Positions 7,225 to 57,233 of a stretch of 64,000 nt of DNA are shown one piece after another (positions within the stretch are counted from its first letter, which is position 1; the number at the start of each line of letters is the position of its first letter). The notes beneath the pieces were generated by a model. It did not search any database, was not told the DNA's origin, and saw only the letters and a list, made by a program, of their open reading frames with translations. Made by a program: the position numbers and the translations under genes. Location of the stretch: the IMG/VR virus record IMGVR_UViG_3300046323_000234; one strand, given 5' to 3'. The DNA is from a virus.

Positions 7225-10200
7225 ATGGGTGGTAGAAAAATAACCATTAAGCAAATTGATGCGACATTAATTCCAGATGGAAAAATTGTAAAGGCTAGTG
7301 GTGGTACATTGGTATTTACAAGTGAAACAACTGGTGTTGTTGATGGTGACAAAGGTGATATAATAATATCAAATACTGGTCAGACTTATGTTATTGATCA
7401 AAAAGCTGTTACTTATGATAAGATTCAAGATACATTAAACACTAATATTCTAATAGGTAGATATGACCCTGCTGGTGGTGTATTACAAGAAATTATGATT
7501 GGTACTGGTTTGTTAATAACTGGTGACACATTGGTGTCAACTGCTGCATTTTTTGGTAGTGGTGGAACATCTGGTGAAATAAATACCGCAAGTAATTTAG
7601 GAACTGGTATTGGTTTATATAGTACAAAAGTTGGAAGTGATTTAAGATTTAAATCAATAATGGCTGGCCCAAATATAATTATATCTGGTAATAGCTCAAT
7701 GATTATAATTTCTGGCTCACCTAGTGGAGAAATTAATACTGCATCAAATGTTGGTACTGGTGTTGAATTGTTTAAACAAAAAAATGGATTTGATTTAGAA
7801 TTTAAAACAATATCAGGTACTCCAAATCAAATAACTGTTATAAGCGGAAGTAATTTGATTAGATTGGCTTTGCCACAGGATATTGCTATTACATCAAGTC
7901 CAACGTTTTTAAATGTAAATGCTGATAATATAGTTACCACAGGAAGTAATCAAACAATAAGTGGTGTAAAAACATTTGTTAATAATATTATTGCCAGTGC
8001 ATTAACATTAACAGTAACAACTGGAAAGCCACCGTTAGTAGTAAGTTCATCAACAATGGTTGTGAATCTAAATGCGGATTTAATTGATAGTATTCAAGGC
8101 GTGGATTTAGTTACTGGTGGTACAAATTTTGGTGGAGGTATAAGTCCTTTTACAACTAAAGTTGCAAAAGATTTATTATTTAGAGGTCTAACTGGTAGAA
8201 CGAATCAAATAATCATATCGGCTAGTACTTCGTTAATTACATTTAGTTTACCACAAGATATTGGTGGTACATCTGTACCACAATTTGGTGGATTAAATAT
8301 TTCAAATAATATAGTATCAAGTGCAATAACAGTAACGAATAGTGCTAGGTTGTTATATATAACTGGTACAACGAATCAAACATTAGTATTAACACCGAAT
8401 GGTGTTATATCAGCAACGACAATTGCCATTATTGCAAATACGAATATAATAACTGGTGGTACAAATTTTGGTGGAGGTATTGCTGTATATTCAGGTAATA
8501 ATGTTAATAATTTATTCTTTAGAACATTAACAGGTAGAACGAATCAAATAATTATTTCAGCTAGTACTAATTTGATTACATTTGCTTTACCACAAGATAT
8601 TGGTGGCACATCTGTACCACAATTTGGTGGATTAAATATAACAAATAATATAACAACTAGTGCAATAACAATTACAAATAGTGCAAGGTTATTATATATT
8701 ACTGGTACAACGAATCAAACATTAGTCATAACACCGAATGGTATCATATCGGCAACGACAATTATTGATAATGGTGAAGTAAATACTGCTAGTAATATAG
8801 GTGGTGGTGTTGGCGTGTTTTCTGATAAATCAGGTGTTGATTTAAGATTTAAAACTTTCAGCGGAACATCAAATCAAGTAATTATATCAGCTAGTACTGA
8901 TATGGTTATATTTAGATTACCACAAGATATAGCAACTACATCAAGTCCTACATTTAGGAATATAACAACAAGTGCTATAACAGTAACAAATAGTGCAAGA
9001 TTATTACACATTACTGGCACAACTGATCAAATACTGACTTTAACACCAAATGGCGTAGTATCAGCAACAACAATTGCCAATTATTATAATGAAATATTTC
9101 CAGAAGATGGTGCATCATCGAATGTAACAGTAACTGGTTGGACAAGGGTAGCAATGCGAACATCATCAAGTGGTAGAGGTCAATCTATTGTAACAATCTA
9201 TTCTAGGGGTGGTAATTCAGCAACAGCATCAGTTCAATTATATTGGGGAACTAGTAGTAGTTCATCATCTGCTGAATTAAGAATTGTTGGAGGGCATTTA
9301 AGAGTACAAGGTCTTGAAGATGATGGTGTAACACCAGTATTTAGAAGTGTACTAGAAAATACAGTTACATATCTAGAAATGGAAGTAATTTCAGTACCAA
9401 GAAGTTATTGGGCAAGAGTTAATAATGTTGGTTCAACATTATATCCAACAACACCACTAAACTTTGAATTATCACCATTAACTGGTACAACAGTTGCAGA
9501 GATACCATATACTGCATTATATGTAAAAGACTTTCAAGTTAATTTAGATGGTTCAGTATCATCAAGGAATTTTATTACAGCTAGTGGATTTACATCAACA
9601 GTACCAATTGGTACTGCACCTTTAGTTGTAAATTCATCTACATTGGTAAATAATTTAAATGTTCAATATTTTGATGGATTAGAAAGTAGTGATTATGTTA
9701 ACGTTAGTAGTCCACAATCAATAACAGGTGTTAAAACATTTAATAATGATATTATTGTAAATAAAAATATTATAACAAGTGCTATAACAGTAACGAATAG
9801 TGCAAGGTTATTATACATTACTGGTAATACCAATTTAGCATTAATATTAACACCGAATGGTGTTATATCGGCAACGACAATAAATACAAATAATAATATT
9901 GGTACAATCACTGGTGGAACTAATTTAGGTAGTAATTTTAACATATTTAGCGGTAATAGTGGTAATAATCTATTTTTTAGAACAATTATTGGCGGTGGTA
10001 ATATATCAATATCGGGTAATAATACAACAATTATTATATCTGGTTCATCTGGTGCTAGTGGTGAAGTAAATACAGCTAGTAATATAGGTAATGGTGTTGA
10101 TATATTTGCAAATAAATCAGGTGATGATTTAAGATTTAGAACATTAAGTGGAACACCTAATCAAATAAATATATTTAGTGGTACATCATTATTAACTTTT

Positions 10201-11187
10201 GGTTTACCACAAGACATTGCAACAACATCAAGCCCAACATTTAATAATTTAAATATTACAAATAATATTGTATCAAGTGCAATAACGATAACAAATAGTG
10301 CAAGGTTATTATATATTACTGGTACAACGAATCAAACATTGGTATTAACACCGAATGGTGTTATATCAGCAACTACAATTGCCATTATTGCGAATACGAA
10401 TATAATAACTGGTGGTACAAATTTTGGTGGAGGTATTGCTGTATATTCAGGTAATAATGTTAATAATTTATTCTTTAGAACATTAACTGGTAGAACAAAT
10501 CAAATAATCATATCAGCTAGTACTGATTTGATTACATTTAGCTTACCACAAGATATTGGTGGTACTTCATCGGTCAATTTTTCAAATTTAAATATTAGTA
10601 ATAATATTATAACAAATAATATTATTAGTGGTGGCTCTTTAAGTATAAATAGATTAGTTGTTGCATCAGCATTTACATCAACAGTTAGTACTGGAACACA
10701 ACCAATAAGTGTACAATCAAGAACATTGGTTACGAATCTAAATGCTAGTTTATTAGTTGGTCAGAGTGACACATTTTATGTTAACACAGGTACAAGTCAG
10801 ACAATAACTGGTATAAAGACATTTGTTTCGGATGTTGTTGCAATTAGAATGATAACAGCAAGTGCATTAACACTTACAGTAAGAACTGGAATGCCACCAT
10901 TGGTAGTGAGTTCATCAACAATGGTTGTGAATCTAAATGCTGATATGATTGATAATATTCAAGGTAATCAATTAATAACAGGTGGAACTAATCTAGGTGG
11001 TGGTGTACAAATATTTTCTGGAAATACACCATATAATTTAAATTTTAGAACGGTATTTGGTGATCCAACAATACAAATAAGTGCTAATACAACAACAGCA
11101 ACAATAATGTATAAACCAATCATTATCGTAACTGGCGATTCACCGACTGGCGTATATCCAGATGGGGCGATTTGGATACAAATCTAA
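7225..11187 (+). CDS. long repetitive tail fibre / virion fibre protein
   Basis: Repeats GE(I/V)NTASN.G.G, LPQDI, QTI(S/T)G.KTF, PLVVSSSTMVVNLNAD; ends GAIWIQI; late motif upstream. Confidence 0.8.
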   Translation: MGGRKITIKQIDATLIPDGKIVKASGGTLVFTSETTGVVDGDKGDIIISNTGQTYVIDQKAVTYDKIQDTLNTNILIGRYDPAGGVLQEIMIGTGLLITGDTLVSTAAFFGSGGTSGEINTASNLGTGIGLYSTKVGSDLRFKSIMAGPNIIISGNSSMIIISGSPSGEINTASNVGTGVELFKQKNGFDLEFKTISGTPNQITVISGSNLIRLALPQDIAITSSPTFLNVNADNIVTTGSNQTISGVKTFVNNIIASALTLTVTTGKPPLVVSSSTMVVNLNADLIDSIQGVDLVTGGTNFGGGISPFTTKVAKDLLFRGLTGRTNQIIISASTSLITFSLPQDIGGTSVPQFGGLNISNNIVSSAITVTNSARLLYITGTTNQTLVLTPNGVISATTIAIIANTNIITGGTNFGGGIAVYSGNNVNNLFFRTLTGRTNQIIISASTNLITFALPQDIGGTSVPQFGGLNITNNITTSAITITNSARLLYITGTTNQTLVITPNGIISATTIIDNGEVNTASNIGGGVGVFSDKSGVDLRFKTFSGTSNQVIISASTDMVIFRLPQDIATTSSPTFRNITTSAITVTNSARLLHITGTTDQILTLTPNGVVSATTIANYYNEIFPEDGASSNVTVTGWTRVAMRTSSSGRGQSIVTIYSRGGNSATASVQLYWGTSSSSSSAELRIVGGHLRVQGLEDDGVTPVFRSVLENTVTYLEMEVISVPRSYWARVNNVGSTLYPTTPLNFELSPLTGTTVAEIPYTALYVKDFQVNLDGSVSSRNFITASGFTSTVPIGTAPLVVNSSTLVNNLNVQYFDGLESSDYVNVSSPQSITGVKTFNNDIIVNKNIITSAITVTNSARLLYITGNTNLALILTPNGVISATTINTNNNIGTITGGTNLGSNFNIFSGNSGNNLFFRTIIGGGNISISGNNTTIIISGSSGASGEVNTASNIGNGVDIFANKSGDDLRFRTLSGTPNQINIFSGTSLLTFGLPQDIATTSSPTFNNLNITNNIVSSAITITNSARLLYITGTTNQTLVLTPNGVISATTIAIIANTNIITGGTNFGGGIAVYSGNNVNNLFFRTLTGRTNQIIISASTDLITFSLPQDIGGTSSVNFSNLNISNNIITNNIISGGSLSINRLVVASAFTSTVSTGTQPISVQSRTLVTNLNASLLVGQSDTFYVNTGTSQTITGIKTFVSDVVAIRMITASALTLTVRTGMPPLVVSSSTMVVNLNADMIDNIQGNQLITGGTNLGGGVQIFSGNTPYNLNFRTVFGDPTIQISANTTTATIMYKPIIIVTGDSPTGVYPDGAIWIQI
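8305..10569 (+). repeat. near-identical ~310 bp intragenic duplication (about 8305-8613 and 10261-10569)
   Basis: Both copies encode NNIVSSAIT.TNSARLLYITGTTNQTLVLTPNGVISATTIAIIANTNIITGGTNFGGGIAVYSGNNVNNLFFRTLTGRTNQIIISAST.LITF.LPQDIGGTS. Confidence 0.9.
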
Positions 11188-11237
11188 TTATGATATCTAA
11201 ACAAAATAAACTATTTATAAGAGATTAAATATAGTAA

Positions 11238-12872
11238 ATGTCCAATTTTACAACACGTCCAAATTTAGATAACAGAGATTTTACACAAACAAGTGGTTCA
11301 TCATTAAGTTTATATGGTGTAACTACTGTTGTTAATGATGGTGAATTAAATATTGATGGTATATTAAGGTCAAAGGGTATAATAATTGATGCAACAACAG
11401 GTGGAACTGGTTCAACAATTGGATATGGTTTAATATTTAATGGCGAAAGGATTTTATTACAACCAACCCTATCTAATGTTTCTTGGGGTAGTATTAATGG
11501 TGTATTATCTGGGCAAACTGATTTATGGAGGGTTATTAGTGGGACAACATCAAATGTTGGTGATATAACAGGTGCAACCAATGGTTTAACAAAGGTTGAT
11601 AAGGATATTAGATTAGGTGGTAGATTAAGTGGTACAACCACAATTATATTTGAGCAAACTGGTTCAACATATGGAAATATATCATATGTTTTAACAATTG
11701 GTGAAGAGGAAAATGCGTTTAATATAAGAACGACAAGCAATCAAGCAACAAATCCAATAACTGAGATAAAATCAAATGCATCAGAAATACAGTTATCACA
11801 TTCTGATGATATAACAGTTAGTACGGTTAATGTTGGCGATTCTGGTAATGAAATGTTAACGCTTGATGTTACTGGTGGTAGTTATAGTAAACAATCAACT
11901 GGCATTGATCCACAAATCAATTTACCATTTGCAAAAATGGAAACTGTTAGGAGTGATAATTCAGCAGTTAATCAAATAAGGGTTATAAGAACTGGTATTA
12001 CAATAACATTACAGAATTTTAATAATTCGGATTTAGTTAAATTAGAATTTTCAAATGATGGTGGAACTAAATATACCGATAATAGAATAATTAATACTGG
12101 TATTGAATATGCTGGTAATTATAGAACTGGTTTTACACAATTTACATTAGTTGATAAGGGATTTGTTGAACAATTAGTTAGTAATACATCTGGTTCAACA
12201 GTAGTATTACCATCAGCAATAACAAGAACTGAATTATTTACATATATATCATCAGCTAGTACATATACTGTAAGTACACCAGCTATTGATGTTTTATTTT
12301 TAGATGTTAATGGTATTGTACAAAGAAAAAATATTGATTATAGTGTTAGTGGAAATGTAATTACATTATTATCAACATATGATAACGGTGATATCATTCA
12401 AGTCGTATATTATCAAGATTATAATCACACAATAACTGTTGAAGCTTTTTGGGGTGATATATATGGTACATTGACTGCACAAACTGATTTGGTTAATTAT
12501 ATTGACCAACAAATATTAGCATCAACACCACCCTCTCCATTACCAACAATATCTGGTTATACCAATATATCAGCAGTTACATCAATAAATTTTAGTAATT
12601 ATAATATATTTAAAGCAAACGTAATTGGTGATTTATCACCATTATTAACTGGTGGAACAGAAGGTTTAACATATGTTTTAAGATTGAGAAATGAATCCAC
12701 TGGAACAACATATAATTTGTTTTGGTCTGGAAATACTTATTATAGAACCGATTCAATTCCATTGTTAAATATAATAGAACCTAGTACAACTAATGATTAT
12801 TATATTTTTAGACTTGATAATTATTATAAAATAAACGTAGATTATTCGATAGCCATAGTTACAACATCATGA
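11238..12872 (+). CDS. virion fibre / tail-associated protein
   Basis: WG.I.G.L..QTDL motif twice; VNG..Q....DY module; N-terminus shared with 16542; late motif upstream. Confidence 0.7.
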   Translation: MSNFTTRPNLDNRDFTQTSGSSLSLYGVTTVVNDGELNIDGILRSKGIIIDATTGGTGSTIGYGLIFNGERILLQPTLSNVSWGSINGVLSGQTDLWRVISGTTSNVGDITGATNGLTKVDKDIRLGGRLSGTTTIIFEQTGSTYGNISYVLTIGEEENAFNIRTTSNQATNPITEIKSNASEIQLSHSDDITVSTVNVGDSGNEMLTLDVTGGSYSKQSTGIDPQINLPFAKMETVRSDNSAVNQIRVIRTGITITLQNFNNSDLVKLEFSNDGGTKYTDNRIINTGIEYAGNYRTGFTQFTLVDKGFVEQLVSNTSGSTVVLPSAITRTELFTYISSASTYTVSTPAIDVLFLDVNGIVQRKNIDYSVSGNVITLLSTYDNGDIIQVVYYQDYNHTITVEAFWGDIYGTLTAQTDLVNYIDQQILASTPPSPLPTISGYTNISAVTSINFSNYNIFKANVIGDLSPLLTGGTEGLTYVLRLRNESTGTTYNLFWSGNTYYRTDSIPLLNIIEPSTTNDYYIFRLDNYYKINVDYSIAIVTTS

Positions 12873-13420
12873 GCATATTAGATTCATCAGGTAATAATCT
12901 ACCACCAGAAATTGGATTGGAAGGTCATTGGTTGACTAAATATGGTAAACCAATAACTAACACTGGTTTAATACCTAGTAGAGTAGGTAAAACTGACAGA
13001 TTTCCTGTTAGTGGGTCGTGTATTGCTCTCGATAAAACGGACGATTATGTTAATGTTGGTAATTTAAATACATCAGCTTCAACGATATGTGTTTGGGTTA
13101 AACCAAATAGTGTAACAGCAGTTGTAAATTATTTAATACAATTCACAACAAGACAATCAATTAATTTTATTAATGCTGTTGTAGCCCCAAGCGGTATTAC
13201 AAATACAATAATATATGTTAATGGTAATTCTGGTTCAACGTTAACAACAAACTGGAATCATTTAGTGGTAACTACACCAAATCCAATAAATTTAACAGAT
13301 GTTACTATTGGAAGATTTGAGGGAAATAAATATTATGGTGGACAATTATTTGATTTGATATTATATTCAGATGTAAAAACATTATCATTTATTAACGAAT
13401 TATATAATAGTTATTTGTAA
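12869..13420 (+). CDS. LamG / concanavalin-like domain protein
   Basis: DDYVNVG, TICVWVKP, WNHLVVT, IGR...YYGG.L.DL.LY. Confidence 0.75.
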   Translation: MSILDSSGNNLPPEIGLEGHWLTKYGKPITNTGLIPSRVGKTDRFPVSGSCIALDKTDDYVNVGNLNTSASTICVWVKPNSVTAVVNYLIQFTTRQSINFINAVVAPSGITNTIIYVNGNSGSTLTTNWNHLVVTTPNPINLTDVTIGRFEGNKYYGGQLFDLILYSDVKTLSFINELYNSYL

Positions 13421-15543
13421 TGGCAGATTTAACACAAAATACTATATTAAGATTTAAATGTGATGAATCAACTGGAACGACAGTTTATGATTCATCTGGT
13501 AATGCAATACATAAAGCATTAATTGGTAACATACCAAGAACATCACAAAACATATATTCATTTGCAAATGAAGAAGGATATACATTAAGTGGTTCAACAA
13601 GAATACCAAAACTAAATAATTCAAATACATTGGATGTATTTGGAAATCAATTAACATATAAAGGTAAGGTAAGTTATCCAGCAGAGTTTGTTGAAAGTAA
13701 TGCTCTATCATTCGACACAATCGATGATTATGCTGAATTTCCAAATCCATATTCTTTTTTAAGAACAAATGGATTTACAACAGATTTACCTGTTAGTATT
13801 TTTGCGAGAGTTATGTTTAAGGAAAATGGATCTGATGTTATTGTATTGGGTGCTTCTGAGAATGTCGCATCAAGTGCTGATAGTGATTTTGTTGTATATA
13901 CTGATTCTGCAACAAATAAACTCAGATTCTCTATATATAGTGCAAAAGCAAGTTCATCAAATCCAAATAGAATAAGTGTTTATCAAGCTAGTTTAATACC
14001 AACATTAAATAGATATTATAATATTGTAATAACATATAATGGAAATCGTGATTCAACATCTGTAACATATTATGTTGATGGTATTTCAACATCTGTGGAT
14101 TTATATACATTTATTGGTGTTGGTCATTATACTGGAAAAACACAAGCATTAAGAAGTACTTGGCAAGTATCTAAATTTGGAAGTATAAACTTCAGTTCAA
14201 AAGAAATATCTGCACTTAGTATTTATAATTCAGTATTAACTGCACAAGAGGCTTTAAATTTACATAATGGTATATTTACAAAACCAGCAGTAGTATTTTT
14301 TCCATTTTCAGAAGGTATTGGAAATAATACATATACGACAAGTGGAAGTATAATTACTGGCGCAACATTATTCGGTGGTGTTACAAGATCAAAACAGGAT
14401 ATATATCCATATAACCAATTAAATAATCATTGGCAGTATGTATCAGGAAACACAAGTGGACAAACTGTAACATTATATAGTCCAATAGATTTAACTAATA
14501 GTGTACCAACTGGATTTACATTTAGTAGATTTGTACAAGGTTCGAGATATTATTTAAATGGAAGTGAATCCAAAGTAAATTTTAATTATTATAATGCACC
14601 CAAGACAAATTTATTGCCAACTGGATATACGCAACAAACATCACCTAGTTCATTTCTTTTTTATAGAAATATTTTGGTTAGTAGTGGTACATCCGAATTT
14701 TTATTATATCCAGTAATTAACAATGTGAAAATAGTTAATAAAATTGCTAATTATTCTAGGTTAACAAATATCACCGATAGTGATGTTTTAAATGTTATAT
14801 CTATTATGACTGGATTAACAAAAAATGAACAATATGGTTTAAATTATTTAATAACATATTTAAAATTAACTAATTTATGGAATAAGTTAAAAGCTATTTA
14901 TCCATTTATTGGGCGAACGTCAGCGAATCATAAGTTTAATATCAAAAATCCTTTAGATACTAATGGTGCTTTTAGATTAACATTTTCTGGTGGTGTAACA
15001 CATAACGAAAATGGTGTAACATTTGATGGAATAAATGGATATGCAAATACTTATTTTACACCAACTGCACAACTTACTCAAAATAGTGAATCAATAATTT
15101 ACTATTCTAGGTCTTCTGGTGTTGGTGCAGCAGGTGTACAAGATGACATTGGTACTGCAACGTCAATAATAATTCGAAGTGGTATGATTGTTCGTAATGA
15201 TGTTGGTAATTTTGTATCACAAATGAATAGCGTAACAAATGGACTTACAAGTGTATCGAATCCAGATGGTAAAGGTATTTATGTTTCTAGTAGAATTTCT
15301 TCAACATCTGGGAAATTATTCAAAAATAAAAAAGAAGTTGCATCTAATATAAATGCAAATAATGGTACATTAGGAAATTCAAATCATTATATAGGTTGTA
15401 GAAACGTCAGTAATGTTGCCCAAAGTTTTACACCAAGAAATACAGGATTTGTTGCACTTGGTGATGGGTTAAGTGATATTGAAGCTATTAATTTAAGTAA
15501 TATAATAGAAATAACACAAGTAATTTTAAATAGAAACGTATAA
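13420..15543 (+). CDS. LamG-domain virion / receptor-binding protein
   Basis: ALSFD..DDY, YNIVITY, IYNSVLTAQE; C-terminal LWNKLKAIYPFIG..A..HKFN.K.P module. Confidence 0.75.
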   Translation: MADLTQNTILRFKCDESTGTTVYDSSGNAIHKALIGNIPRTSQNIYSFANEEGYTLSGSTRIPKLNNSNTLDVFGNQLTYKGKVSYPAEFVESNALSFDTIDDYAEFPNPYSFLRTNGFTTDLPVSIFARVMFKENGSDVIVLGASENVASSADSDFVVYTDSATNKLRFSIYSAKASSSNPNRISVYQASLIPTLNRYYNIVITYNGNRDSTSVTYYVDGISTSVDLYTFIGVGHYTGKTQALRSTWQVSKFGSINFSSKEISALSIYNSVLTAQEALNLHNGIFTKPAVVFFPFSEGIGNNTYTTSGSIITGATLFGGVTRSKQDIYPYNQLNNHWQYVSGNTSGQTVTLYSPIDLTNSVPTGFTFSRFVQGSRYYLNGSESKVNFNYYNAPKTNLLPTGYTQQTSPSSFLFYRNILVSSGTSEFLLYPVINNVKIVNKIANYSRLTNITDSDVLNVISIMTGLTKNEQYGLNYLITYLKLTNLWNKLKAIYPFIGRTSANHKFNIKNPLDTNGAFRLTFSGGVTHNENGVTFDGINGYANTYFTPTAQLTQNSESIIYYSRSSGVGAAGVQDDIGTATSIIIRSGMIVRNDVGNFVSQMNSVTNGLTSVSNPDGKGIYVSSRISSTSGKLFKNKKEVASNINANNGTLGNSNHYIGCRNVSNVAQSFTPRNTGFVALGDGLSDIEAINLSNIIEITQVILNRNV

Positions 15544-15544
15544 T

Positions 15545-16063: not shown

Positions 16064-16074
16064 ATTATAAAAAA

Positions 16075-16515: not shown

Positions 16516-16541
16516 CTATTTATATATAAATATCATATTTC

Positions 16542-17372
16542 GTGAGCAACTTTACCACAAGGCCAAATTTAGACAATAGAGACTTCACACAAACCAGTGG
16601 ATCAACATTAAATTTATATGGTAACATCATTTTTGATAAATCTATCATATTAAATGGTGTTAATATAAATGCATCGACTGGTTCATCACTATTTGGATAT
16701 GTTTTAACACATACAGCTAATGGTATTGAATTAAAAGCACCATCTGGATTCACATCGGGTGGTGGAAGCGGTGGTGTTGGTGATATAACTGGTGCTACGA
16801 ATATTGGTGGTGGTGTTGGAGTATTTGCACAAAAGAATAATAAAGATTTTGAATTTAAATCATTTATTCCATTAAGTGCCATGACAATATCTGGCAATTC
16901 AGATCTAATATACTTTGGAGTAAATATTGATGAAACTAGAACACAAAACAGAAATACAGTTCCCAATAGTAAATTATTGGATGATCAATTAATAATTATT
17001 AATACTGGTGCAACATTTAATAGATCATATCAATTACCAGTTGCATTAATTAGTGGAATATCCAGCACATATATAATAGATTTATCACAGGGTGAATTAC
17101 ATACATTGTTATTGTCAGGAAATACTACATTAAATTATACTGGTCATACGATTGGTAAGACATATACGTTAATAATAAAAAAAGAAACAACAAATAAAAC
17201 ATTATCATTTACAACTGGTAGATATATGTTTCCGTTTGGAACAGAACCAGTTACAACCGATCCAACAGCGAATGGTAGTTCACCAGCAAAGAGTGATGAT
17301 ATATTAACATTATTATGTGTTGAATCAGCAAGAATGGCAGTTGTTTCAACACCAAATCTAATAAACAATTAA
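16542..17372 (+). CDS. virion fibre protein, N-terminus paralogous to 11238
   Basis: MSNFTTRPNLDNRDFTQTSGS identical to 11238; ITGATNIGGG...FEFKS module as in 7225. Confidence 0.7.
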   Translation: MSNFTTRPNLDNRDFTQTSGSTLNLYGNIIFDKSIILNGVNINASTGSSLFGYVLTHTANGIELKAPSGFTSGGGSGGVGDITGATNIGGGVGVFAQKNNKDFEFKSFIPLSAMTISGNSDLIYFGVNIDETRTQNRNTVPNSKLLDDQLIIINTGATFNRSYQLPVALISGISSTYIIDLSQGELHTLLLSGNTTLNYTGHTIGKTYTLIIKKETTNKTLSFTTGRYMFPFGTEPVTTDPTANGSSPAKSDDILTLLCVESARMAVVSTPNLINN

Positions 17373-17376
17373 TAAA

Positions 17377-19614
17377 ATGTTATTTGGATTTAGAGGACAT
17401 TGGAATGGGGTTATAGATACCACCGCAAATGGTGAGGTGAGTGTTGGATTGATACAAATGAGAGTTTCAATAGCATCACCTGATATATTTAGTGGTGTGG
17501 TTGATATTGTTCCATTTTATTATGAAGCAGATGTTAATAGTGGTGGAACACCATTGAATATTTCATTAAATGGTACATTTGTATCAGCAGCAACCACAAC
17601 AAATAGAAGTGGATTTATTAGAGAAGGAACATATTCTTTACCAACTGATGGATATGGTGCAGCAACTCTTAGTGGCAGTAGAACGTTCGGATCACAATAC
17701 GTAGAACCAATTTCACCATTAACTAGAAGAAATAGATTTAATATATCTAGACCTGATTTGATTGAAGCAATAGATATTACAACATTATCAAATAATGGTG
17801 GTAAATCAAATACATCAAATCAACAGAGGAATATTAATTTTGACGATTATTCTAGATTTACGAATCTAAAATATATATCATTTAATGAAGGATATATTTC
17901 AGGAATGACTGGTAATTTACCAAATAGTTTAGAATATTTAAGAATTGGTGAACAACCAGTATTAAGAAATATTCCTAAAATTAATAATGGATTAAAACAT
18001 TTTATTCTAAATGAAACAGCAATCCCAACATCAGCAATAACATACACACTATCAGGTGTTTCAACATTAGAAACATTAAATTTTATAAATTTTTCGCCAT
18101 ATCCAAGTGTTAATGCTAATATACAACAATTATCTAATAATCTTGATTTAATAACTAATACATCGTTAAAAAATTTATATATAATTAATAAATCAAGTGG
18201 TGATATTTTTTTACACAATAATCATAATCAATGGGTTGATTTTTATGTGAGAAATTCAATGTACACCAATATTGGATATATAAATAGTTTATTTACAGGT
18301 TCAACCGTTAGAGATTTATTTATTGATGGAAATGGTTTATCATGGAATAGAAATATCGATAGTGATGATATAAATAATAATATGAGATATTGTTATTTAT
18401 ATAGTACCAATATTAGTGGTAATTGTATTATTACAGATAATAAACCCAATCTAATCGATTTTAGATTAGGTAATAATACATTAAGAAGTGGTGTACAACT
18501 AAATTCACATCCAATAGTAAATATTAGTGGTTTAACTGCTTGTGAAACGATTGATTTGAGTGGATGTAATGTTGAAGAATTAGAGCTACCTGTTAATACT
18601 GTTTGTACTTCTTTAATTTTGCTTGATAATAGGTTAGATATCGGTATTAATCCAAATTTAGTGGCTAAGATTAATGCGATGACCGCATTGGTTACATTGC
18701 AATTATCGAACAGCACCAATTTTTCTGGAGGCGCAGCAACGGGGCAGAATTCTACAAATGGATTGGGCGCAAACCCCGATTTATCAAGTCTTGTAAATGC
18801 AACCACTATTTTTATAGGCTCTTGTAAAATTACAGGAATATTAACTCTTCCAAATGTTAATAAATTAACTCAATTAACAGTTAGCGAAAATACAGGACTG
18901 ACAAGTATCGCTAATATTGCACCCCATGTTTCTTTGCTTTTATTTAGAGCAATAAACTGCCCTGCATTAGTCATTGCAAATCTTGCAACGTTTCCTGTGG
19001 CTACAACATTTCAAGCAGGAAAATGCACATTTACGTTATCTGATTACTCAACAAGGACTTCTGCAACAGAAATTAACCTTGATTTAAGAGAATGTGTATT
19101 TTCTAGTGGAGACTTTATATTTCCTTCTGTTGCTGGAAGGTTTCAAATACCGAACAATGGAAATCTATTAATAACAGATTCGCCCACATTAACCGCTTTG
19201 ACGAATTCTGAATTTATAACAGTTCAATCTTTAACTAATTCAACAACATTTAATGTGTCTAATTGTGCTATAAATCAAATCATACCTTTTGGTCAAAATT
19301 CATTCCTGCCGAGAACAATGTTAGTACAAGGAAATGGAATGAATGTTACAAATGTTGACGGCACAATAGATTCAATTTATCAAAATAGTGCAAAATGGGA
19401 TAGAACAGTTGTTCACATATTAAACATCGCTGGCACAAACGCCACACCAAGTGGTTCATATGCTGCACCATCTGGTTATATACAAGCTGATGGCGTTACA
19501 AATGGTAATGATGGATCACCAGTAAGTGCCAAAGAACAAATGTATGTTTTAGTAAATCAAAACGTAGATTTAACAACAACAAAGAAATATAATTGGACGA
19601 TAACAACAAGTTAA
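17377..19614 (+). CDS. leucine-rich-repeat / beta-solenoid virion (receptor-binding) protein
   Basis: LxxLxL-type repeats (NLKYISF, SLEYLRI, TLETLNF, SLKNLYI, KLTQLTV); ends WTITTS. Confidence 0.65.
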   Translation: MLFGFRGHWNGVIDTTANGEVSVGLIQMRVSIASPDIFSGVVDIVPFYYEADVNSGGTPLNISLNGTFVSAATTTNRSGFIREGTYSLPTDGYGAATLSGSRTFGSQYVEPISPLTRRNRFNISRPDLIEAIDITTLSNNGGKSNTSNQQRNINFDDYSRFTNLKYISFNEGYISGMTGNLPNSLEYLRIGEQPVLRNIPKINNGLKHFILNETAIPTSAITYTLSGVSTLETLNFINFSPYPSVNANIQQLSNNLDLITNTSLKNLYIINKSSGDIFLHNNHNQWVDFYVRNSMYTNIGYINSLFTGSTVRDLFIDGNGLSWNRNIDSDDINNNMRYCYLYSTNISGNCIITDNKPNLIDFRLGNNTLRSGVQLNSHPIVNISGLTACETIDLSGCNVEELELPVNTVCTSLILLDNRLDIGINPNLVAKINAMTALVTLQLSNSTNFSGGAATGQNSTNGLGANPDLSSLVNATTIFIGSCKITGILTLPNVNKLTQLTVSENTGLTSIANIAPHVSLLLFRAINCPALVIANLATFPVATTFQAGKCTFTLSDYSTRTSATEINLDLRECVFSSGDFIFPSVAGRFQIPNNGNLLITDSPTLTALTNSEFITVQSLTNSTTFNVSNCAINQIIPFGQNSFLPRTMLVQGNGMNVTNVDGTIDSIYQNSAKWDRTVVHILNIAGTNATPSGSYAAPSGYIQADGVTNGNDGSPVSAKEQMYVLVNQNVDLTTTKKYNWTITTS

Positions 19615-34283: not shown

Positions 34284-34359
34284 AAATATTTTATTATTTT
34301 TTATAAAATTTTATATTTTTTTATAAATACTAACTATTTATATAAAAGTATATAAATTT

Positions 34360-39625: not shown

Positions 39626-39627
39626 TT

Positions 39628-43416: not shown

Positions 43417-43980
43417 GTGGAAATGATTAAATATGCAATTCAATATAGTTCAGGTACAACATATTATATCAATTTTGGATTAACCCAAAAATATGATAAT
43501 GTTGGGTTATTTTCAATTGTTGGTTCTGGAACAACTGGAACTACACTTGTTAATAAAATAACTGGCTATACCGATTCTAGATTGATTGAACTTGAGAAAT
43601 ATACAATATCTGATGATATTTCACAAAAATATGTATTAACTGGTTCATCCACTTCGGATGGTGTTGTATATAATGATTCAACAGGTTCAACAATATCTTA
43701 TTGGATTGGTGGAATTAATTATGTAGATTACAGTGCAACTACCGTTTTTACCTACTATTCAAGCGGTCTGACAGCTTTAAATTCATATAGCACAAATATT
43801 GTCGTTGAAGATAAAAATGTTAACCTGACCGATGATTCTAGGGTAGATAGTGATATTGATGTTGATAGACAATCAATATCAGTGTTTGAAAACCATTATA
43901 GAATAGCCACAGCAACAAATTTAAATGATTTAATAAACTATGCTGGTGGATCTTATTTCAATATTATTGAAAATAATTAA
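43417..43980 (+). CDS. virion structural protein
   Basis: Follows the wedge gene; ITGYTDSRL.EL..Y; rich in [ST][GA]xT. Confidence 0.6.
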   Translation: MEMIKYAIQYSSGTTYYINFGLTQKYDNVGLFSIVGSGTTGTTLVNKITGYTDSRLIELEKYTISDDISQKYVLTGSSTSDGVVYNDSTGSTISYWIGGINYVDYSATTVFTYYSSGLTALNSYSTNIVVEDKNVNLTDDSRVDSDIDVDRQSISVFENHYRIATATNLNDLINYAGGSYFNIIENN

Positions 43981-45123: not shown

Positions 45124-45155
45124 AACCTTTTAATTGATTGTACGTTAGATTACAC

Positions 45156-50136: not shown

Positions 50137-53100
50137 TTGGCAACAAGAAGAGTCATTAATGGTAATATAAATTATGATTTGGTTGGTGGTTCTTTTAAGA
50201 ATTCTCCATCACAAACCCTATTCAGTGCAGGTGATTTCTCATTAGAGACAAATCTATCAAATAGAAACATCAGAAATTATAATAATGTTCTGGGTGTATT
50301 TCTTGAACCAATTACATTGGAGAACATCAATCTAACAGTTGATGAATCCAAAACAATCTCCACATTATCACAAAGATTATTATTAAACTACGATAAGACA
50401 GATCTAAACAACTATGCCAAGTTTGGATCATTAGCTGAATATATTAGAATTTCTATTGAAGAGATTATAACAAAATTTCCAGCTAGTATGTATGTACCCA
50501 ACATATTTGATAGACAGATGTATAATACTGTTAATGATTATTCATATGATATATATTCAAATACTGCAACATTTAGAACACCAATTGCGCCAATCGAAAA
50601 CAATTTCGGATTAATATATGATTATGGCAATAGTCAATATCCAGAGGGATTGGAGATTAGAAATTTAAATCTATCATATAACTTATATTCAATATTTAGA
50701 AACACATCAAGAACAACAGAGTATAATATTATTGGATTTACTGGATATTCAGATACTAGCATATATTTTAAAGTTAGTGGTAATCCATTTACTGAATTAA
50801 CTGTTACAACTGGATTAACAACATTATCGACAACATTTCATATTAAACCAAATTTCTCAACATATAATAAAGCAATAAAAGATTTATCTGATTTTGAAGA
50901 ATTTTTGTTAGCAAATAAATCAATTGACGGTTATATAATTAAGTTAAAAATACCACAGCAAAATGATAGGGGTGAGAGTGTATTAATTGACACTCAAATA
51001 TTATGGCCAACAAGTGATGGTTATAATATTGATATATCTGGTTCGGAATACGGTGAATTTTTACAAAGATTATATAATGTCGGAGTTCAATATGATGATT
51101 ATAAAACCGATCTAATATATAGATTTTTAACACCACAATCATTAAAATCGTATGATTTAACATCAGATCAAAAAATATCAAAATTACTTAGAGTATATGG
51201 TAGAGAATTTGATGAAATAAAACGTTTCATTGATTCAATATCATATTTAAATAAAATTAATTATGATAAGAAAAATAACATACCAGATGTATTAATTAAA
51301 AATTTTGCAAGGGTATTTGGTTGGGATACATTTAACTTAGTTGATGAAAATGATTTATTAAAAAGATTTTTCGGTGATAGTTCTAGTGAAGATAGTGAAT
51401 CATATCTACCAGCAGAAGTTGATATTGAATTATGGAGAAGAATTGTTTTAAACACTAATTACTTTTGGAAATCAAAGGGAACTAGAGAAGCTATTAGATC
51501 AATGTTCTTATTCTTAGGAATACCAGATTCATTAATATCAATCAATGAGTATGTTTATACTGTAGATGAAAAAATAAATGTTGACACTATTGAATTGGCA
51601 ATCGATATTAGATCGACATCCAATCCATATAATTCTGAAGGTTATCCAATATCACCATTAGAAGATTCTAGATTTTATTTTCAATTAAGTGGAAATACCG
51701 ATGGTGGTAATGCTTATATGGATAATTTTAGGAATGTTGGATTTAAATTAAATAGAACAGTAGATAATAAAAAATCATGGACGTATACTGGTGCGACAGT
51801 TAGGAATGATACTGAAACTAATTATACACAAAATGATAGTAAATTAATAATTAATACAAAAGAGATTGATGTATCATTTGATATAGCTAGAGGTATTGAA
51901 TATGAATTTTATAAATATAATAGTTTATATAACTATCCAATATCATCAACTGGCGTTACTATGCCATTTTTATATATAAACATTCCTTTGGATATAACTG
52001 GTTCATCACAAACTAATTTTATTATTCCAGAAGAACAGTTAGGTGATATACAAGTAAATATAAATGGTATTACATTGGCCATCGGTACAATCCCAGGCGA
52101 AAACGATTATTATATCAATCCATTAAACGAGCAAGAAATTATATTAAACGTATCTGCATATAAAAACTATGTTGGATTTAATGATACAATATCTGTTACA
52201 TATACAGTAGATAGAAGCGGTGTATTAACATCAGCAACTGTTAAATATGTTGTAACAAAATTTGCCGTAACATCTGATGGTCAAACTGTATTTACACTAC
52301 CAAAAGAACCTGCTGGTGATGTTCAATTAACATTAAATGGTGTAACATTAACAAAAGGTATTGGTGCAACTGACGGTGATTATATAATAAACCCATCAAA
52401 TCGAAAAGAGGTTATTGTAAGATCATCAATATTGGGTGCATATTTAAAAACAACAGATACAATTGTAATAACATATTTGGAAATTAATGATACATCAATA
52501 TTGGTTGAAAAATATTCAGATTTTCATAGAGTAACATCATTGTTCGCTAGTAACTTCTATTATAATTCATTGCTTAATAAGTTTACATATATAATGCAAT
52601 ATAGTGCATTTAATGAATACGCAATGAAAGTTATAGTAAATGGTATAACTTTAACTAATGATGTTGATTTTACATTATCATCAACAAATAAAAAACAAAT
52701 ATTTTTTAACGCACCACTTAGGATTGGTGATACAATAAATATATTTTATTATATTAATACTGGTGATGCTGGTTTAGGTGCATATAGTTTTAGTGATGGA
52801 AGTATTGCATCTGAGATGACGTTCTTGGAATTTATTAATAAAATAACACGAGAATTTATTGATGCAAAAGATAGAAAGATTATTACAAATTATGAAGGTG
52901 GTTACTACCCAACATTATCAACATTGTATGATTTATACTATAATGGACAAACTCAAAGTGGTACGACATTTTTAAATAATTATAATTTTATAAAGTTATA
53001 TAAATACCTAAACAATTTTAATGGGTATTTTCAAACATTTGTATCACAATTATTGCCAGCAACAGCAATTTTAAGAAAAGGTGGTATATCAATCCGAAAT

Positions 53101-54285
53101 ACAATTTTTCATCAACAAAAATTCACATATAAAGCTGGATATTATGATAGTGGAAAATCAGATTATGGATCTGAATTTGTTGTAACATCACAAGATTTTA
53201 TGGATTTTGGAAATGGTTTTAATAATACGGTAAATACAGCATTAAAGTTGGATGATGGTTATTTGATTGGTGGAAGTTTCACATCATATAGTGCAAATAC
53301 TGGTAACATATCAGCTAATAGATTAATAAATTTAAATAATAGAGGTTATGTTAATAATAATTTTATTATTGGTTCTGGTTTTAGTGATGGAATTGTTTAT
53401 AAAATATTAAGAACACATGATAATAAGTATTTAATGTGTGGTTCATTTACATCATATAATGGCACATCATCTAATAGAATTGTAAAATTAAATATTGATG
53501 GAACTATTGATTCAACCTTCACAACTGGTAGTGGATTTGGTAATCAAGTATATGATATGTCAATCCAATCCGATGGTAAAATACTTGTCGGTGGAGAATT
53601 TACATCATATAGTGGTGTAACTACCAGAAATAGAATCATTAGATTAAATTCTGGTGGTACAATTGATAATACGTTTCAGATTGGATCTGGTTTTGATACT
53701 ATAGTTAGAACGTTAGCTATTCAATCTGATGGTAAAATACTTGTCGGTGGAGAATTTACATCATATAGTGGTGTTTCTAAAAGTAGAATTATTAGATTAA
53801 ATACTGGTGGAACTATTGATGAAACTTTTCAGATTGGTACTGGTTTTAGTGGCAGTGGTTTAGTGTTAGATATTGAACAACAATCCGATGGTAAAATACT
53901 TGTTGGTGGTAGTATTGAAAGTTATGATGTTGAACCATCATTAAATAATATTATTAGATTAAATTCAGACGGTAGTGTTGATACAATATTTGGAGATGGT
54001 TTCGATGGTACTGTTAGAGCAATAAAACAACAATCAAATAATAAAATATTAGTTGGTGGTGATTTTCAAATATATAGTGGTATAACATCAAATAAAATTA
54101 TTAGATTAAATACTAACGGTAGTGTTGATTCAACATTTGGTGATGGATTTGCTGGCTCAGTTACAAATATTCTAATCAATTCAGATGATGAAATTATAAT
54201 AATGGGTGATTATAATACATATGATGGACAGGTTGCCAATGATATTATTAGAATTAATAATGATGGAAATAAAACATCGGATTAA
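50137..54285 (+). CDS. large baseplate/tail protein with VNG..L modules and C-terminal delta-60 beta-propeller
   Basis: FGSL, EFDEIK.FID, NIPD.L....A..FGW, WRR.VLN......KSKGTR.AI; C-terminal QSDGKILVGG.F repeats; late motif at 50112. Confidence 0.75.
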   Translation: MATRRVINGNINYDLVGGSFKNSPSQTLFSAGDFSLETNLSNRNIRNYNNVLGVFLEPITLENINLTVDESKTISTLSQRLLLNYDKTDLNNYAKFGSLAEYIRISIEEIITKFPASMYVPNIFDRQMYNTVNDYSYDIYSNTATFRTPIAPIENNFGLIYDYGNSQYPEGLEIRNLNLSYNLYSIFRNTSRTTEYNIIGFTGYSDTSIYFKVSGNPFTELTVTTGLTTLSTTFHIKPNFSTYNKAIKDLSDFEEFLLANKSIDGYIIKLKIPQQNDRGESVLIDTQILWPTSDGYNIDISGSEYGEFLQRLYNVGVQYDDYKTDLIYRFLTPQSLKSYDLTSDQKISKLLRVYGREFDEIKRFIDSISYLNKINYDKKNNIPDVLIKNFARVFGWDTFNLVDENDLLKRFFGDSSSEDSESYLPAEVDIELWRRIVLNTNYFWKSKGTREAIRSMFLFLGIPDSLISINEYVYTVDEKINVDTIELAIDIRSTSNPYNSEGYPISPLEDSRFYFQLSGNTDGGNAYMDNFRNVGFKLNRTVDNKKSWTYTGATVRNDTETNYTQNDSKLIINTKEIDVSFDIARGIEYEFYKYNSLYNYPISSTGVTMPFLYINIPLDITGSSQTNFIIPEEQLGDIQVNINGITLAIGTIPGENDYYINPLNEQEIILNVSAYKNYVGFNDTISVTYTVDRSGVLTSATVKYVVTKFAVTSDGQTVFTLPKEPAGDVQLTLNGVTLTKGIGATDGDYIINPSNRKEVIVRSSILGAYLKTTDTIVITYLEINDTSILVEKYSDFHRVTSLFASNFYYNSLLNKFTYIMQYSAFNEYAMKVIVNGITLTNDVDFTLSSTNKKQIFFNAPLRIGDTINIFYYINTGDAGLGAYSFSDGSIASEMTFLEFINKITREFIDAKDRKIITNYEGGYYPTLSTLYDLYYNGQTQSGTTFLNNYNFIKLYKYLNNFNGYFQTFVSQLLPATAILRKGGISIRNTIFHQQKFTYKAGYYDSGKSDYGSEFVVTSQDFMDFGNGFNNTVNTALKLDDGYLIGGSFTSYSANTGNISANRLINLNNRGYVNNNFIIGSGFSDGIVYKILRTHDNKYLMCGSFTSYNGTSSNRIVKLNIDGTIDSTFTTGSGFGNQVYDMSIQSDGKILVGGEFTSYSGVTTRNRIIRLNSGGTIDNTFQIGSGFDTIVRTLAIQSDGKILVGGEFTSYSGVSKSRIIRLNTGGTIDETFQIGTGFSGSGLVLDIEQQSDGKILVGGSIESYDVEPSLNNIIRLNSDGSVDTIFGDGFDGTVRAIKQQSNNKILVGGDFQIYSGITSNKIIRLNTNGSVDSTFGDGFAGSVTNILINSDDEIIIMGDYNTYDGQVANDIIRINNDGNKTSD

Positions 54286-54323: not shown

Positions 54324-55898
54324 ATGAGTTTTATAATAAAAGATTCACCAATAACATTAAATATTAAATTAACAACACTAGGAAGAAAAAAACTTTCCGA
54401 AGGTAATTTACAGTTTAAAAAATGGGCAATTGGTGATAGTGAAATAAATTATGAATTTGCATCAGAAACATCTTTTGATTTAACAGATGGAATGGTTTTA
54501 AGACCTAAAGATGTAAACCCATCAATCAAATCATATATAAAGGAAAATCCAGATAGTGAATCAAATTACACAACAATATCAAGCGTTGATTCAACTGAAA
54601 TTACTGTAATCAATACGGCTAGTGAAAGAGGTTTCTTTTTAAGGTCAGGTTCAACATTTACATTAGACTTAGATCAAACAAGACAACCACATTTACTAAT
54701 ACGCAATCATCAATTAAATACTACTGGTAAAACTACATTATCACTTGTGCAATCATCTGCTTATGGATTGGTATTAAATGAACCACAAGTAAATGATTTT
54801 ATATTAATTGGGTGGAGAAATCCAAGATTGACTGGTACAAGTTTATTACAAAATAGTATAATAGATATTAATTCACCAATACCATTCATATGGTATAAAA
54901 TACAAGATATTATATCAGGTACATCAATTGCTTTAAATAATTTACAAATCACCGTTGATAAAAATTTACCAAACTTTAATGGTATATCAGGTACATCATT
55001 TGCTATTGTATATCCAAATGCTAGTGGATATACATCGACAAATACATCAGAATATGATTCAATGAAAAATTATTATGATAATGTTGGTGATGTTAGAGTA
55101 TGGAATATGTCAATTATTTATGGTGATACACTAGCTGGTACTTTAGCAAATTATAAAAATAAATCAACATATAAAACAAAAAAATATTCTGGCGATATAG
55201 TTTATATTGCTCAAAGTGCATATACTGAAAATAGTTTTGCAACATATGGAACAACATTGAGAAATGTTGGAATAATCCATTATACAAATAGTTCAATAAC
55301 AAATAACTATGGTGAATCATTAGATTCAAATACACCAGTATTGGATTTGCCAACAATAATGTGGCATTATAATACTGGTAATACATTAGGATTAACATTA
55401 AGTTGTGGTAATGAAAGAAAAACACTTAATGGATTGGATTCATACTATTATGATTTAGGTGATGAAGATGGAAATGTTGTTGGTAAATGTTTTATTGATT
55501 TAAAAATATTTGTAATTGAAGATCAAGAACTATTACATGCAATGTCGTATAAATCCAATCGAAATTGGACTATTCCTGAATGCTCTGCTGGATTTAATAT
55601 TAGTACATGTGTTAACCCTTGTTCAATTGAATTTGATTATATAAATGTAACACAACCGACAGTTATAACTGGTGGAACTATTGAAATTATTGCTAGTGGT
55701 TATAGTGGAACAATTTATTATTCAAATGATAATGGTGTTACATATCAAACAAGTAATATATTCTATAATGTGTCTGCTGGTAATTATATGATTAGAATTA
55801 AAGATATAACCAAAGATGGATGTGTTGCCACTGCACTTGTAACATTAACAACAGATGCTGCTGATTTTAGTATTGACTTTAGTGATGACTTTGGTTAA
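54324..55898 (+). CDS. baseplate / tail structural protein
   Basis: LTTLGRKKL..G......WAIGDSEINY; C-terminal SprB-like YSNDNG.TYQ.SN.F.N...G.Y.I.IKD. Confidence 0.65.
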   Translation: MSFIIKDSPITLNIKLTTLGRKKLSEGNLQFKKWAIGDSEINYEFASETSFDLTDGMVLRPKDVNPSIKSYIKENPDSESNYTTISSVDSTEITVINTASERGFFLRSGSTFTLDLDQTRQPHLLIRNHQLNTTGKTTLSLVQSSAYGLVLNEPQVNDFILIGWRNPRLTGTSLLQNSIIDINSPIPFIWYKIQDIISGTSIALNNLQITVDKNLPNFNGISGTSFAIVYPNASGYTSTNTSEYDSMKNYYDNVGDVRVWNMSIIYGDTLAGTLANYKNKSTYKTKKYSGDIVYIAQSAYTENSFATYGTTLRNVGIIHYTNSSITNNYGESLDSNTPVLDLPTIMWHYNTGNTLGLTLSCGNERKTLNGLDSYYYDLGDEDGNVVGKCFIDLKIFVIEDQELLHAMSYKSNRNWTIPECSAGFNISTCVNPCSIEFDYINVTQPTVITGGTIEIIASGYSGTIYYSNDNGVTYQTSNIFYNVSAGNYMIRIKDITKDGCVATALVTLTTDAADFSIDFSDDFG

Positions 55899-55932
55899 AA
55901 TAAATAAACTATTTATATAAAACAATAATATA

Positions 55933-56481
55933 ATGGCCCAAAAAAGCTACAACAATTTATATACAGGTATAACAAGTACAATTAAAAATAATAGTTTAAA
56001 AAGTATTAGTGGGATTACTTTACAAAATGCTTTAATCGATATTGTTGATAGTACATTTGGTGCTTTCAGTGGAAATACTGGTGGTAATAATAAAACGGCA
56101 ACTGGTATAACCACAACATATGTTGATAGTTCAAGTGTTGTTAGTGAAGTAACAGTAAAAAGTAAAATATTAGAAATTGGTGATTGGGATATGGATACTA
56201 ACGATTCAAAAAGTGTCGCTAGTGGTATTTCTAGTTTAGAAACAAAATTAAGATTGGTTAGTATTATGGTTAGAAATGATTCTGCTACTGAATTAAATCC
56301 ATTTTTATGTACAATAAGACAAATAGCTGGTGGTAGTTTGTATGAAGGTGAAGGTGGTATAAATATATCAACAGATGATTTAATATATTTAAGAAGAAAA
56401 ACTGCTGGAATATATGACAGCACTGAATATAATTCAACATCATATAACAGAGGTTGGATTTATATAACATATCAAGAATAA
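55933..56481 (+). CDS. virion-associated protein
   Basis: Late motif at 55907; EIGDWDMD, NRGWI. Confidence 0.55.
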   Translation: MAQKSYNNLYTGITSTIKNNSLKSISGITLQNALIDIVDSTFGAFSGNTGGNNKTATGITTTYVDSSSVVSEVTVKSKILEIGDWDMDTNDSKSVASGISSLETKLRLVSIMVRNDSATELNPFLCTIRQIAGGSLYEGEGGINISTDDLIYLRRKTAGIYDSTEYNSTSYNRGWIYITYQE

Positions 56482-56483
56482 AA

Positions 56484-57233
56484 ATGGCACAAGCATTACC
56501 AACAACAGTATTTATAACATATTTGTTTGAAAATGATCAAACATATTTATCTGGTTCAACATATGGATTCCAGACACCAATCCATTGTGCGTATATTCAA
56601 AAATTAACCACAGATGATTATAGAGGGAAAAAAATAAACTTCACATTTAATGAAGATTTATTTCCATTTATGAAATCAACAAGTGAAATGAATGGATTGG
56701 GTTGGAATGCGAATAGAATTAAAGCACTTGTTCAAAAATATGATTATGTTGATGAAACACTTAGGCCAGATCCAACATTATGGAAAATAATTGATGTAAC
56801 CAATCAAATATCTGGTTTTGCCACGTTTTCAGCCACTACAATCAATCCAAATGATTTGGTAGGTGTTATCTTCAGTATTAGTGATTCGTTATACGAGAGT
56901 GCAAGTATATATGATTTAGACCAATATTTAAATCTACCTGAAACAATTGATGATGACAATAAACTAAATTTCGGTGATGAAACATTTTTTTATGGAAATA
57001 TTACAACCGATATTAATGCAACCATACAAAGAAGTAATATTAATATATTCCTACCATTAAACACATATAATAATAGTACCAATCCAACATGGGAACAAAA
57101 TACACCAGTATATATAACAGAGATTGGTATTTATGATGATAATAATGATTTGGTTGGCATCGCTAAACTAAATTATCCAATCGATAAAGATAATACCAAA
57201 ACAAGAACTTTTGATTTTGGAATGGATTTTTAA
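56484..57233 (+). CDS. baseplate structural protein
   Basis: C-terminal STNPTW...YITEIGIYDDNNDLVGIAKL..PI; ATG at 56484 (MAQALP) preferred. Confidence 0.7.
   Translation: MAQALPTTVFITYLFENDQTYLSGSTYGFQTPIHCAYIQKLTTDDYRGKKINFTFNEDLFPFMKSTSEMNGLGWNANRIKALVQKYDYVDETLRPDPTLWKIIDVTNQISGFATFSATTINPNDLVGVIFSISDSLYESASIYDLDQYLNLPETIDDDNKLNFGDETFFYGNITTDINATIQRSNINIFLPLNTYNNSTNPTWEQNTPVYITEIGIYDDNNDLVGIAKLNYPIDKDNTKTRTFDFGMDF

Follow-up and report, generated by a model that had tools for sequence, protein, structure and literature searches.

The DNA analysed here is a 64,000-nucleotide stretch of virus record IMGVR_UViG_3300046323_000234 (hereafter the window), taken from a source contig of 171,483 bp. 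The window has a GC content of 28%, and its genes lie nearly all on the + strand. It encodes a DnaB-type helicase, NrdA, NrdB, an SNF2 helicase, PolB, and gp25-like and gp6-like baseplate wedge proteins, together with large orphan proteins arranged in blocks. A first-pass annotation made from the letters alone had pointed to a four-residue pattern, [ST][GA]xT, recurring in the outer virion proteins, and to a late glycosyltransferase (GT) gene at 34360-35706, and had proposed that the two form a virion glycosylation system. We tallied the pattern in 52 window proteins and compared it with 2,000 composition-preserving shuffles of each protein; paired figures below are observed/expected. The capsid and tube genes of this phage sit outside the window, and the capsid comparison uses a relative, G001. 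Proteins are named by the first position of their genes.

Twelve late proteins (7225, 11238, 12869, 13420, 16542, 17377, 31412, 43417, 50137, 54324, 55933 and 56454) contained 120 copies of the motif in 6,727 residues. The remaining 40 proteins contained 3 copies in 12,365 residues vs. 6.0 expected, and one of the three is the Walker A of the helicase. The per-protein counts of the first-pass annotation proved exact, both the high ones (18 in the 544-aa 11238 protein, 7 in the 187-aa 43417 protein) and the low ones (0 in NrdA, 1 in PolB, and 1 in the helicase, GSGKT). Every one of the 12 motif-rich proteins was 3- to 12-fold over its shuffles, also when repeats were masked. Internal repeats of ~113 aa make up 757 of the 1,320 residues of 7225; the repeat hits there, and the DUF5122 hits in 31412 and the C-terminus of 50137, are not independent counts. 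Masking of internal repeats left 84 copies vs. 15.4 expected. Shuffles confined to windows of 12, 20 or 40 residues gave 16-18 expected copies (z ~18), so the claimed enrichment beyond composition holds. In this phage, as in the relatives treated below, the fibre and outer baseplate proteins carry [Ser/Thr]-Gly-x-Thr five to eight times over chance.

The enrichment is specific to the arrangement of the residues. When every one of the 8,000 "ab.c" triples was scored in an unbiased way, TG.T (38/5.3), SG.T (30/4.8) and SA.T (15/2.5) took ranks 1-3, and the same scan of the non-fibre proteins revealed no such residue coupling. Non-overlapping permutations of the same residue classes reached 0.6-1.7-fold only, and two-position partial patterns were at or under expectation in the motif-rich proteins; the partly overlapping variant T[GA]x[ST] gave 47 copies vs. 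15-18. Position 4 favours Thr, and Ser there is weak (22/14). At position 1, Asn is weakly favoured (N[GA]xT, 12/6.6), and D[GA]xT gave 5/4.1. T-A-x-T was not enriched (1/2.5). The refined motif is hydrophobic-[ST]-G-x-T plus S-A-x-T: [ST]-G-x-T gave 68/10.1, the ratio growing to 9.3-fold when position -1 is hydrophobic, and S-A-x-T gave 15/2.6. Hydrophobic residues were over-represented at -4 to -1 and at +4, and chained overlapping copies occur (e.g., TGGTGST, SGITGLT). Among other candidate motifs, N-x-[S/T] was at expectation in the motif-rich proteins and was rejected; DGY (4/1.4) and TxSG (12/4.7) are weak here.

Several other origins of the signal were rejected. Local compositional patchiness was ruled out by the shuffles within 12-40 residues and by the permuted patterns. 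The spacing of copies equals random placement, so no hidden short periodic repeat lies behind the signal. Shared modules were rejected as the cause, because homology among the motif-rich proteins is confined to three short modules (the 11238/16542 N-termini, a 16542/7225 segment, and the 31412/50137 DUF5122 region). A DNA-word cause (ACTGGT) was also rejected: the words occur in frame 0 only and the codon bias is genome-wide, which places the signal at the protein level. The use of ACT at motif position 1 reflects a codon-pair rule (NNT before GGN, 80-83%) that the motif-rich and the other proteins follow alike, as do TG dipeptides that are not part of a motif. In all window genes, four-fold codons end in T in 80-83% of cases before a codon starting with GG, vs. 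34-35% before other codons, as would fit an avoidance of A-GG (Shine-Dalgarno-like) words in genes.

Table 1. Coordinates of the motif-rich proteins, the glycosyltransferase gene and associated features in the window
Feature	Position	Strand	Remarks
1320-aa fibre-like protein	7225..11187	+	~113-aa internal repeats with the look of solenoid rungs; 39 motifs, 14/2.8 outside repeats
544-aa appendage protein	11238..12872	+	18 motifs vs. 2.1 expected; N-terminal ~75 aa common with 16542
183-aa protein	12869..13420	+	Sub-threshold, weak Laminin_G_3/ConA-like match; 3 motifs vs. 0.4 expected
707-aa orphan appendage protein	13420..15543	+	9 motifs vs. 1.9 expected
276-aa protein, first of second appendage module	16542..17372	+	7 motifs vs. 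1.2 expected
745-aa orphan appendage protein	17377..19614	+	8 motifs vs. 1.9 expected
418-aa delta-60 (DUF5122) beta-propeller protein	31412..32668	+	Pfam 2e-49; Y-S-G-x-T in 5/5 repeats
CTATTTATA box	34334..34342	+	~25 nt upstream of the GT start
448-aa predicted GT-B glycosyltransferase, Glycos_transf_1 type	34360..35706	+	0 motifs itself; candidate motif reader
gp6-like baseplate wedge protein	41562..43406	+	0 motifs; anchor for finding relatives
187-aa protein directly 3' of gp6 gene	43417..43980	+	7 motifs vs. 0.6 expected
1382-aa baseplate-distal protein	50137..54285	+	C-terminal DUF5122 propeller; 10 motifs vs. 2.5 expected
524-aa orphan	54324..55898	+	6 motifs vs. 1.2 expected; orthologue motifs mostly in other columns
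182-aa orphan	55933..56481	+	4 motifs vs. 0.7 expected
259-aa orphan	56454..57233	+	2 motifs vs. 0.4, not significant alone; orthologues 2-4 vs. 0.4-0.6

The gp6-like protein was used as query and gave 27 IMG/VR loci, and complete genomes of relatives were then retrieved. Relatives of 115-349 kb carry the enrichment, even in fibre genes without similarity to those of the window. Single proteins of closer relatives reached 14/3.0, 10/1.5 and 8/1.2, and one locus (L064) gave 43/9.8 overall. The 349-kb genome G001 has 9 enriched open reading frames (ORFs). Its fibre block, syntenic with window 7225-19614, gave 39/8.8, 15/4.3, 19/3.0 and 16/3.2, and has almost no sequence in common with the window fibres. 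Values near background were found in the same genome for the major capsid protein (3/1.5), sheath (6/2.3), portal (1/0.5), terminase (0/0.3) and several further large proteins of like composition. The enrichment is restricted to peripheral virion proteins and, being replicated in G001 fibres of almost no similarity, is independent of homology and lineage-wide in a group of uncultured freshwater large phages. It is not a generic property of phage fibres: no enrichment was found in 34 structural proteins of T4 (29/27.6), including its fibres and outer proteins (20/17.4; gp34 1/4.2, gp37 7/3.3), and no ORF was enriched in the whole genome of phAPEC8 (44/41.9).

G001 also encodes a 688-aa orphan (L043:6805-8871; G001 234805-236871, + strand) with 15 copies vs. 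1.0 expected; the copies stand in non-repetitive sequence, and several form chains (SGITGLT, TGGTGNT). Its gene is near the head genes, away from the fibre blocks, and the protein had no match in Pfam or PHROG.

The pattern is under purifying selection. A pattern search found no relatives of the 11238 protein among deposited phages or in IMG/VR. A set of 5.8 billion proteins gave one homologue, P0122 (64% identical by BLASTP); for the WG..QTDL consensus of the first-pass annotation, too, this is the only homologue. P0122 keeps 12 of the 14 aligned 11238 sites, vs. 44% expected from how often [ST], [GA] and T residues outside the motif are retained in that alignment (binomial p = 0.0017), and 5 of the sites kept changed residues yet stayed within the pattern. 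In orthologue alignments, one set of sites persists and drifts only between members of the class (TGLT, SGAT, SAST, TAST). Many other sites are gains particular to a lineage, often through S/T and T appearing on either side of a Gly that was already present.

The family of the 43417 protein showed the turnover on a larger scale. An exhaustive search gave 150 representatives, mutually <50% identical, which contain 393 copies vs. 46.5 expected (8.4-fold); permuted controls gave 68-119. The copies fall in 76 alignment columns, the top column has an occupancy of 53%, and 129 of 378 lie in insertions. The number per protein ranges from 0 to 10. The enrichment specific to one arrangement, the 12 of 14 sites retained, and a turnover of positions that leaves the density constant together support the view, argued from the letters in the first-pass annotation, that a short linear motif is selected for in peripheral virion proteins of several unrelated sequences. 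Positions of the motif keep changing while its number is kept, and something probably reads it.

An AlphaFold2 model of the 43417 protein built from 97 sequences had a mean predicted local distance difference test (pLDDT) score of 87. Six of the seven motifs are in coil or loops next to strands; the model gives the local state of these sites, not their exposure on the virion. Across the family, the N-arm and loops contain 2-6.7 motifs per 100 residues, and the conserved C-terminal half contains zero in ~8,300 residues. A Foldseek search of the model against the PDB gave no match, so with no solved relative the position of the protein in the virion is inferred from gene order. The family (P0123-P0272) combines a variable, motif-rich N-arm with a conserved C-terminal half whose consensus end is YAGGxYFNI, and includes short forms (143-154 aa) without the N-arm.

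Delta-60 repeats allowed the motif to be viewed within a known family. PF17164 units were found in 31412 (2e-49, 5 stretches) and in the C-terminus of 50137 (2e-66, 6 stretches). Across 913 delta-60 repeats from 119 homologues, the four positions read N 50% / S 25%, G 83%, x, and T 31% / S 30%. The motif occurs in 11.3% of these repeats with a bimodal distribution: it is absent from 79 proteins, and 12 carry it in half or more of their repeats. The 79 motif-free homologues, which include named bacterial ones, gave 78/125 at their other sites, and none of the named bacterial homologues examined has the motif. Two high-motif proteins were traced, one to a 279-kb contig syntenic with the window and the other to a phage-like contig. 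The first-pass annotation had held that the motif overwrote the family consensus. That claim is right only in part: 8 of 8 window repeats carry YSGxT, but the form LN[ST]GGT occurs only twice, and YSGxT is a natural minority form, fixed by the phage lineage and not foreign to the family.

The product of 34360-35706 is predicted to be a two-Rossmann-domain GT-B glycosyltransferase of Glycos_transf_1 type, in agreement with the first-pass call. It matched phrog_7162 ("glycosyltransferase") at 4e-44. It had no Pfam match at E ≤ 0.01; the orthologue in relative G004 clears the PF00534 cut-off (31.1 bits). The ESM Atlas model (predicted template modelling score 0.79) had TM-scores of 0.72-0.87 to virus-only clusters with PF00534/PF13692. 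A single-sequence AlphaFold2 model had a pLDDT of 36, and a PDB sequence search with the protein gave nothing. Orthologues are present in 4 of 4 relative genomes searched: they are 51-52% identical and syntenic in G001 and G002, and 36-44% identical in G003 and G004. Few other GT-like genes were found in the relatives. In G001 and G002 the orthologue stands alone near baseplate genes; in G003 (318 kb) it lies beside several GT2-type genes in a small GT cluster (173380-180790).

The first-pass annotation had also assigned the GT and the motif-rich genes a common late promoter. The shared element is there: the CTATTTATA box stands upstream of the GT gene as it does before most motif-rich genes, and the same TATTTATA box, mostly after C, is found 20-32 nt upstream of 7225, 11238, 16542, 50137, 54324 and 55933. 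It also precedes several non-fibre genes. Its role as a late promoter, and with it late expression of the GT, would follow by analogy with T4.

Other genes of the window deserve brief mention. The 7225 protein had no PHROG match, and its Pfam DUF1081 match is probably repeat-driven. A putative phage metallopeptidase (36700-37179; PF18894, 1.1e-11) lies two genes downstream from the GT gene, an order that G001 shares. The gene at 38261-39073 joins an N-terminal dATP/dGTP diphosphohydrolase domain (PF18909, 1.7e-31) to an NT5C-like 5'-nucleotidase region. Enzymes of the dATP/dGTP diphosphohydrolase type accompany non-canonical purine DNA in some phages. A multi-domain late gene (29452-31407) encodes DUF5661 and a weak 2H-phosphoesterase (LigT/Acb1-like) domain, and part of it recurs in a 994-aa ORF of locus L023. 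A tRNA nucleotidyltransferase of CCA-adding type (45138-46484; PF01743 2.9e-21; phrog_2244 1.7e-78) is encoded inside the baseplate block, between the 43417 protein and a conserved 300-aa protein (46549). In phAPEC8 (NC_020079.1), four adjacent annotated glycosyltransferase genes (109618-112765; L029) lie beside primase/helicase, and a gmd-type dehydratase gene is found at 39480-40400.

We tentatively favour the following reading, to which we assign a little less than an even chance. Hydrophobic-[Ser/Thr]-Gly-x-Thr, with its Ser-Ala-x-Thr variant, would be a linear recognition tag, dense in loops and variable arms, which the lineage keeps in its fibre and outer baseplate proteins. Its likeliest reader would be an enzyme that the phage encodes and that modifies proteins in the host cytoplasm, either ahead of assembly or while it proceeds. 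The lineage-conserved GT-B at 34360-35706 is the best candidate, and O-glycosylation the likeliest form of the modification; the enzyme would glycosylate the invariant position-4 Thr and perhaps also the position-1 Ser/Thr. A stricter form of this proposal is possible but doubtful: the lineage may own an O-glycosylation code in which one soluble GT-B reads hydrophobic-[S/T]-G-x-T in surface loops and lays a sugar coat on the host-recognition apparatus. In such a code sites might, with equal reserve on our part, come and go as do the sequons of the glycan shields of animal viruses.

Several observations weigh against tag and enzyme alike. On the side of the enzyme, the GT gene has no morphogenesis module beside it; its neighbours encode a ParB-like protein, DUF6926, the metallopeptidase and the diphosphohydrolase, and such mixed late-gene neighbours do not name its substrate. 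The GT is present in all four relative genomes searched, and no genome of sufficient length lacked it, so there is no contrast of motif and enzyme in which co-variation could be demonstrated; zero-motif members of the 43417 family lie on contigs of 1-5 kb, too short to show whether a GT is present. In phAPEC8, which encodes a gmd-type enzyme and four proteins distantly homologous to the GT, the motif is not enriched, and the locus around a distant homologue in a 735-kb megaphage gave 1/3.5. G001-G003 have no sugar-nucleotide dehydratase of PF16363 type, yet keep the motif, which is therefore independent of a gmd-type glycan island. The mixed neighbourhood and the relatives that keep the motif without a gmd-type sugar gene would suit another role for the motif: it might be recognised by a different modifying enzyme, or by a chaperone or docking partner in fibre assembly, or it might add many weak contacts with a polymer on the host surface. 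In that case the GT would act on, say, DNA or a host envelope glycan, and viral GTs that hypermodify DNA have been described (Pyle et al. 2024, cited in PMC12619734). We consider this unlikely. No alternative reader was identified, no hydroxymethyl-pyrimidine pathway genes were found among the annotated window genes, and the GT has the upstream box of the structural genes, by which it would differ from the early DNA-glucosyltransferases of T4.

On the side of the motif, the best-conserved site of the 43417 family, TGYT, is in a beta-strand, has a nearly invariant Gly (G50) and looks structural. In the delta-60 proteins the motif is confined to a single position, the known Y-N-G hairpin, and the 7225 repeats look like rungs that each open with I-[ST]-[GA]-x-T. 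At many orthologous sites it is the Gly that is conserved, and the flanking hydrophobic residues are placed as in strand-turn-strand. The motif could in that case be a structural signature involving no modification, a lineage-specific way of building beta-turns or solenoid rungs in beta-rich fibre folds: Ser/Thr would cap the Gly turn and the beta-branched Thr would open the next strand. We regard this as rather unlikely, though the rungs, the hairpin position and the conserved Gly residues lend it real support. The fibres of T4 and phAPEC8 and 79 of 119 delta-60 homologues manage without the motif, as do other large proteins of like composition in the same genomes. It occurs in several unrelated sequences, in variable loops and in insertions, with high turnover; Thr greatly exceeds Ser at position 4, all three positions are coupled, and overlapping chained copies are hard to reconcile with a single turn geometry. 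Arrangement specificity, restriction to the peripheral virion, and turnover at constant density lead us to prefer a tag over a structural turn rule. A statistical or compositional artefact of repeat-rich proteins rich in S, T and G is extremely improbable. Repeat copies do make up many of the raw hits, and the pattern was picked by eye, after looking; but the signal withstood repeat masking, local shuffles and permuted-pattern controls, ranked at the top of the unbiased scan, and was replicated in independent relatives and in the 150-member family.

A four-residue tag with a candidate enzyme would offer a testable answer to what many soluble phage GTs act on. If the proposal is true, glycans on fibres would matter for host recognition, for protection against proteases and defence factors, and for the prediction of receptor-binding proteins from sequence. 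A purely structural motif would still amount to a strong, lineage-specific sequence rule for fibre folds, one missing from current family libraries.

In bacteria, cytoplasmic protein GTs modify beta-rich adhesins: autotransporter heptosyltransferases act on AIDA-I and TibA, the N-glycosyltransferase (NGT)/HMW1C enzymes on NX[S/T], and GtfA/B on serine-rich repeats. These soluble enzymes of GT-B type place sugars densely, at many sites of one fibrous surface protein, partly via strand-loop-strand contexts, and in this they resemble the proposed system; compared by description only, their enzyme families and acceptor patterns differ from the phage case. The general O-glycosylation of Bacteroidota is periplasmic and uses the sequon D-[ST]-[AILVMT]. 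That sequon has three residues, occurs across many unrelated proteins and starts with Asp, whereas the phage motif has no Asp requirement and the phage proteins assemble in the cytoplasm. To our knowledge, virion glycosylation by a phage enzyme is experimentally known for few mycobacteriophages only, and we know of no acceptor sequon in a tailed phage.

Mycobacteriophage-encoded GTs are reported to modify the virion proteins of their own phages, with a proposed shielding role (Freeman et al. 2023, cited in PMC12619734 and PMC11256854). The likeness to the present lineage lies in a phage-encoded GT, here a predicted one. By these accounts the mycobacteriophage glycans decorate the C-terminal ends of capsid and tail-tube subunits. 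The candidate sites of the present lineage are internal, in fibres and outer baseplate proteins, and the capsid protein, modified in the reported mycobacteriophages, is near background in G001. Chloroviruses have virus-encoded, host-independent machinery and an atypical, Thr-rich N-sequon, NTXT (NTGT, NTET, NTAT, NIPG) (PMC9614988). Their glycans are N-linked on Asn in the capsid protein of a eukaryotic algal virus; the present motif is in tailed-phage fibres, with Asn at position 1 only weakly favoured. A defined O-sequon on tailed-phage fibres would, if true, be new relative to both the mycobacteriophage and the chlorovirus precedents.

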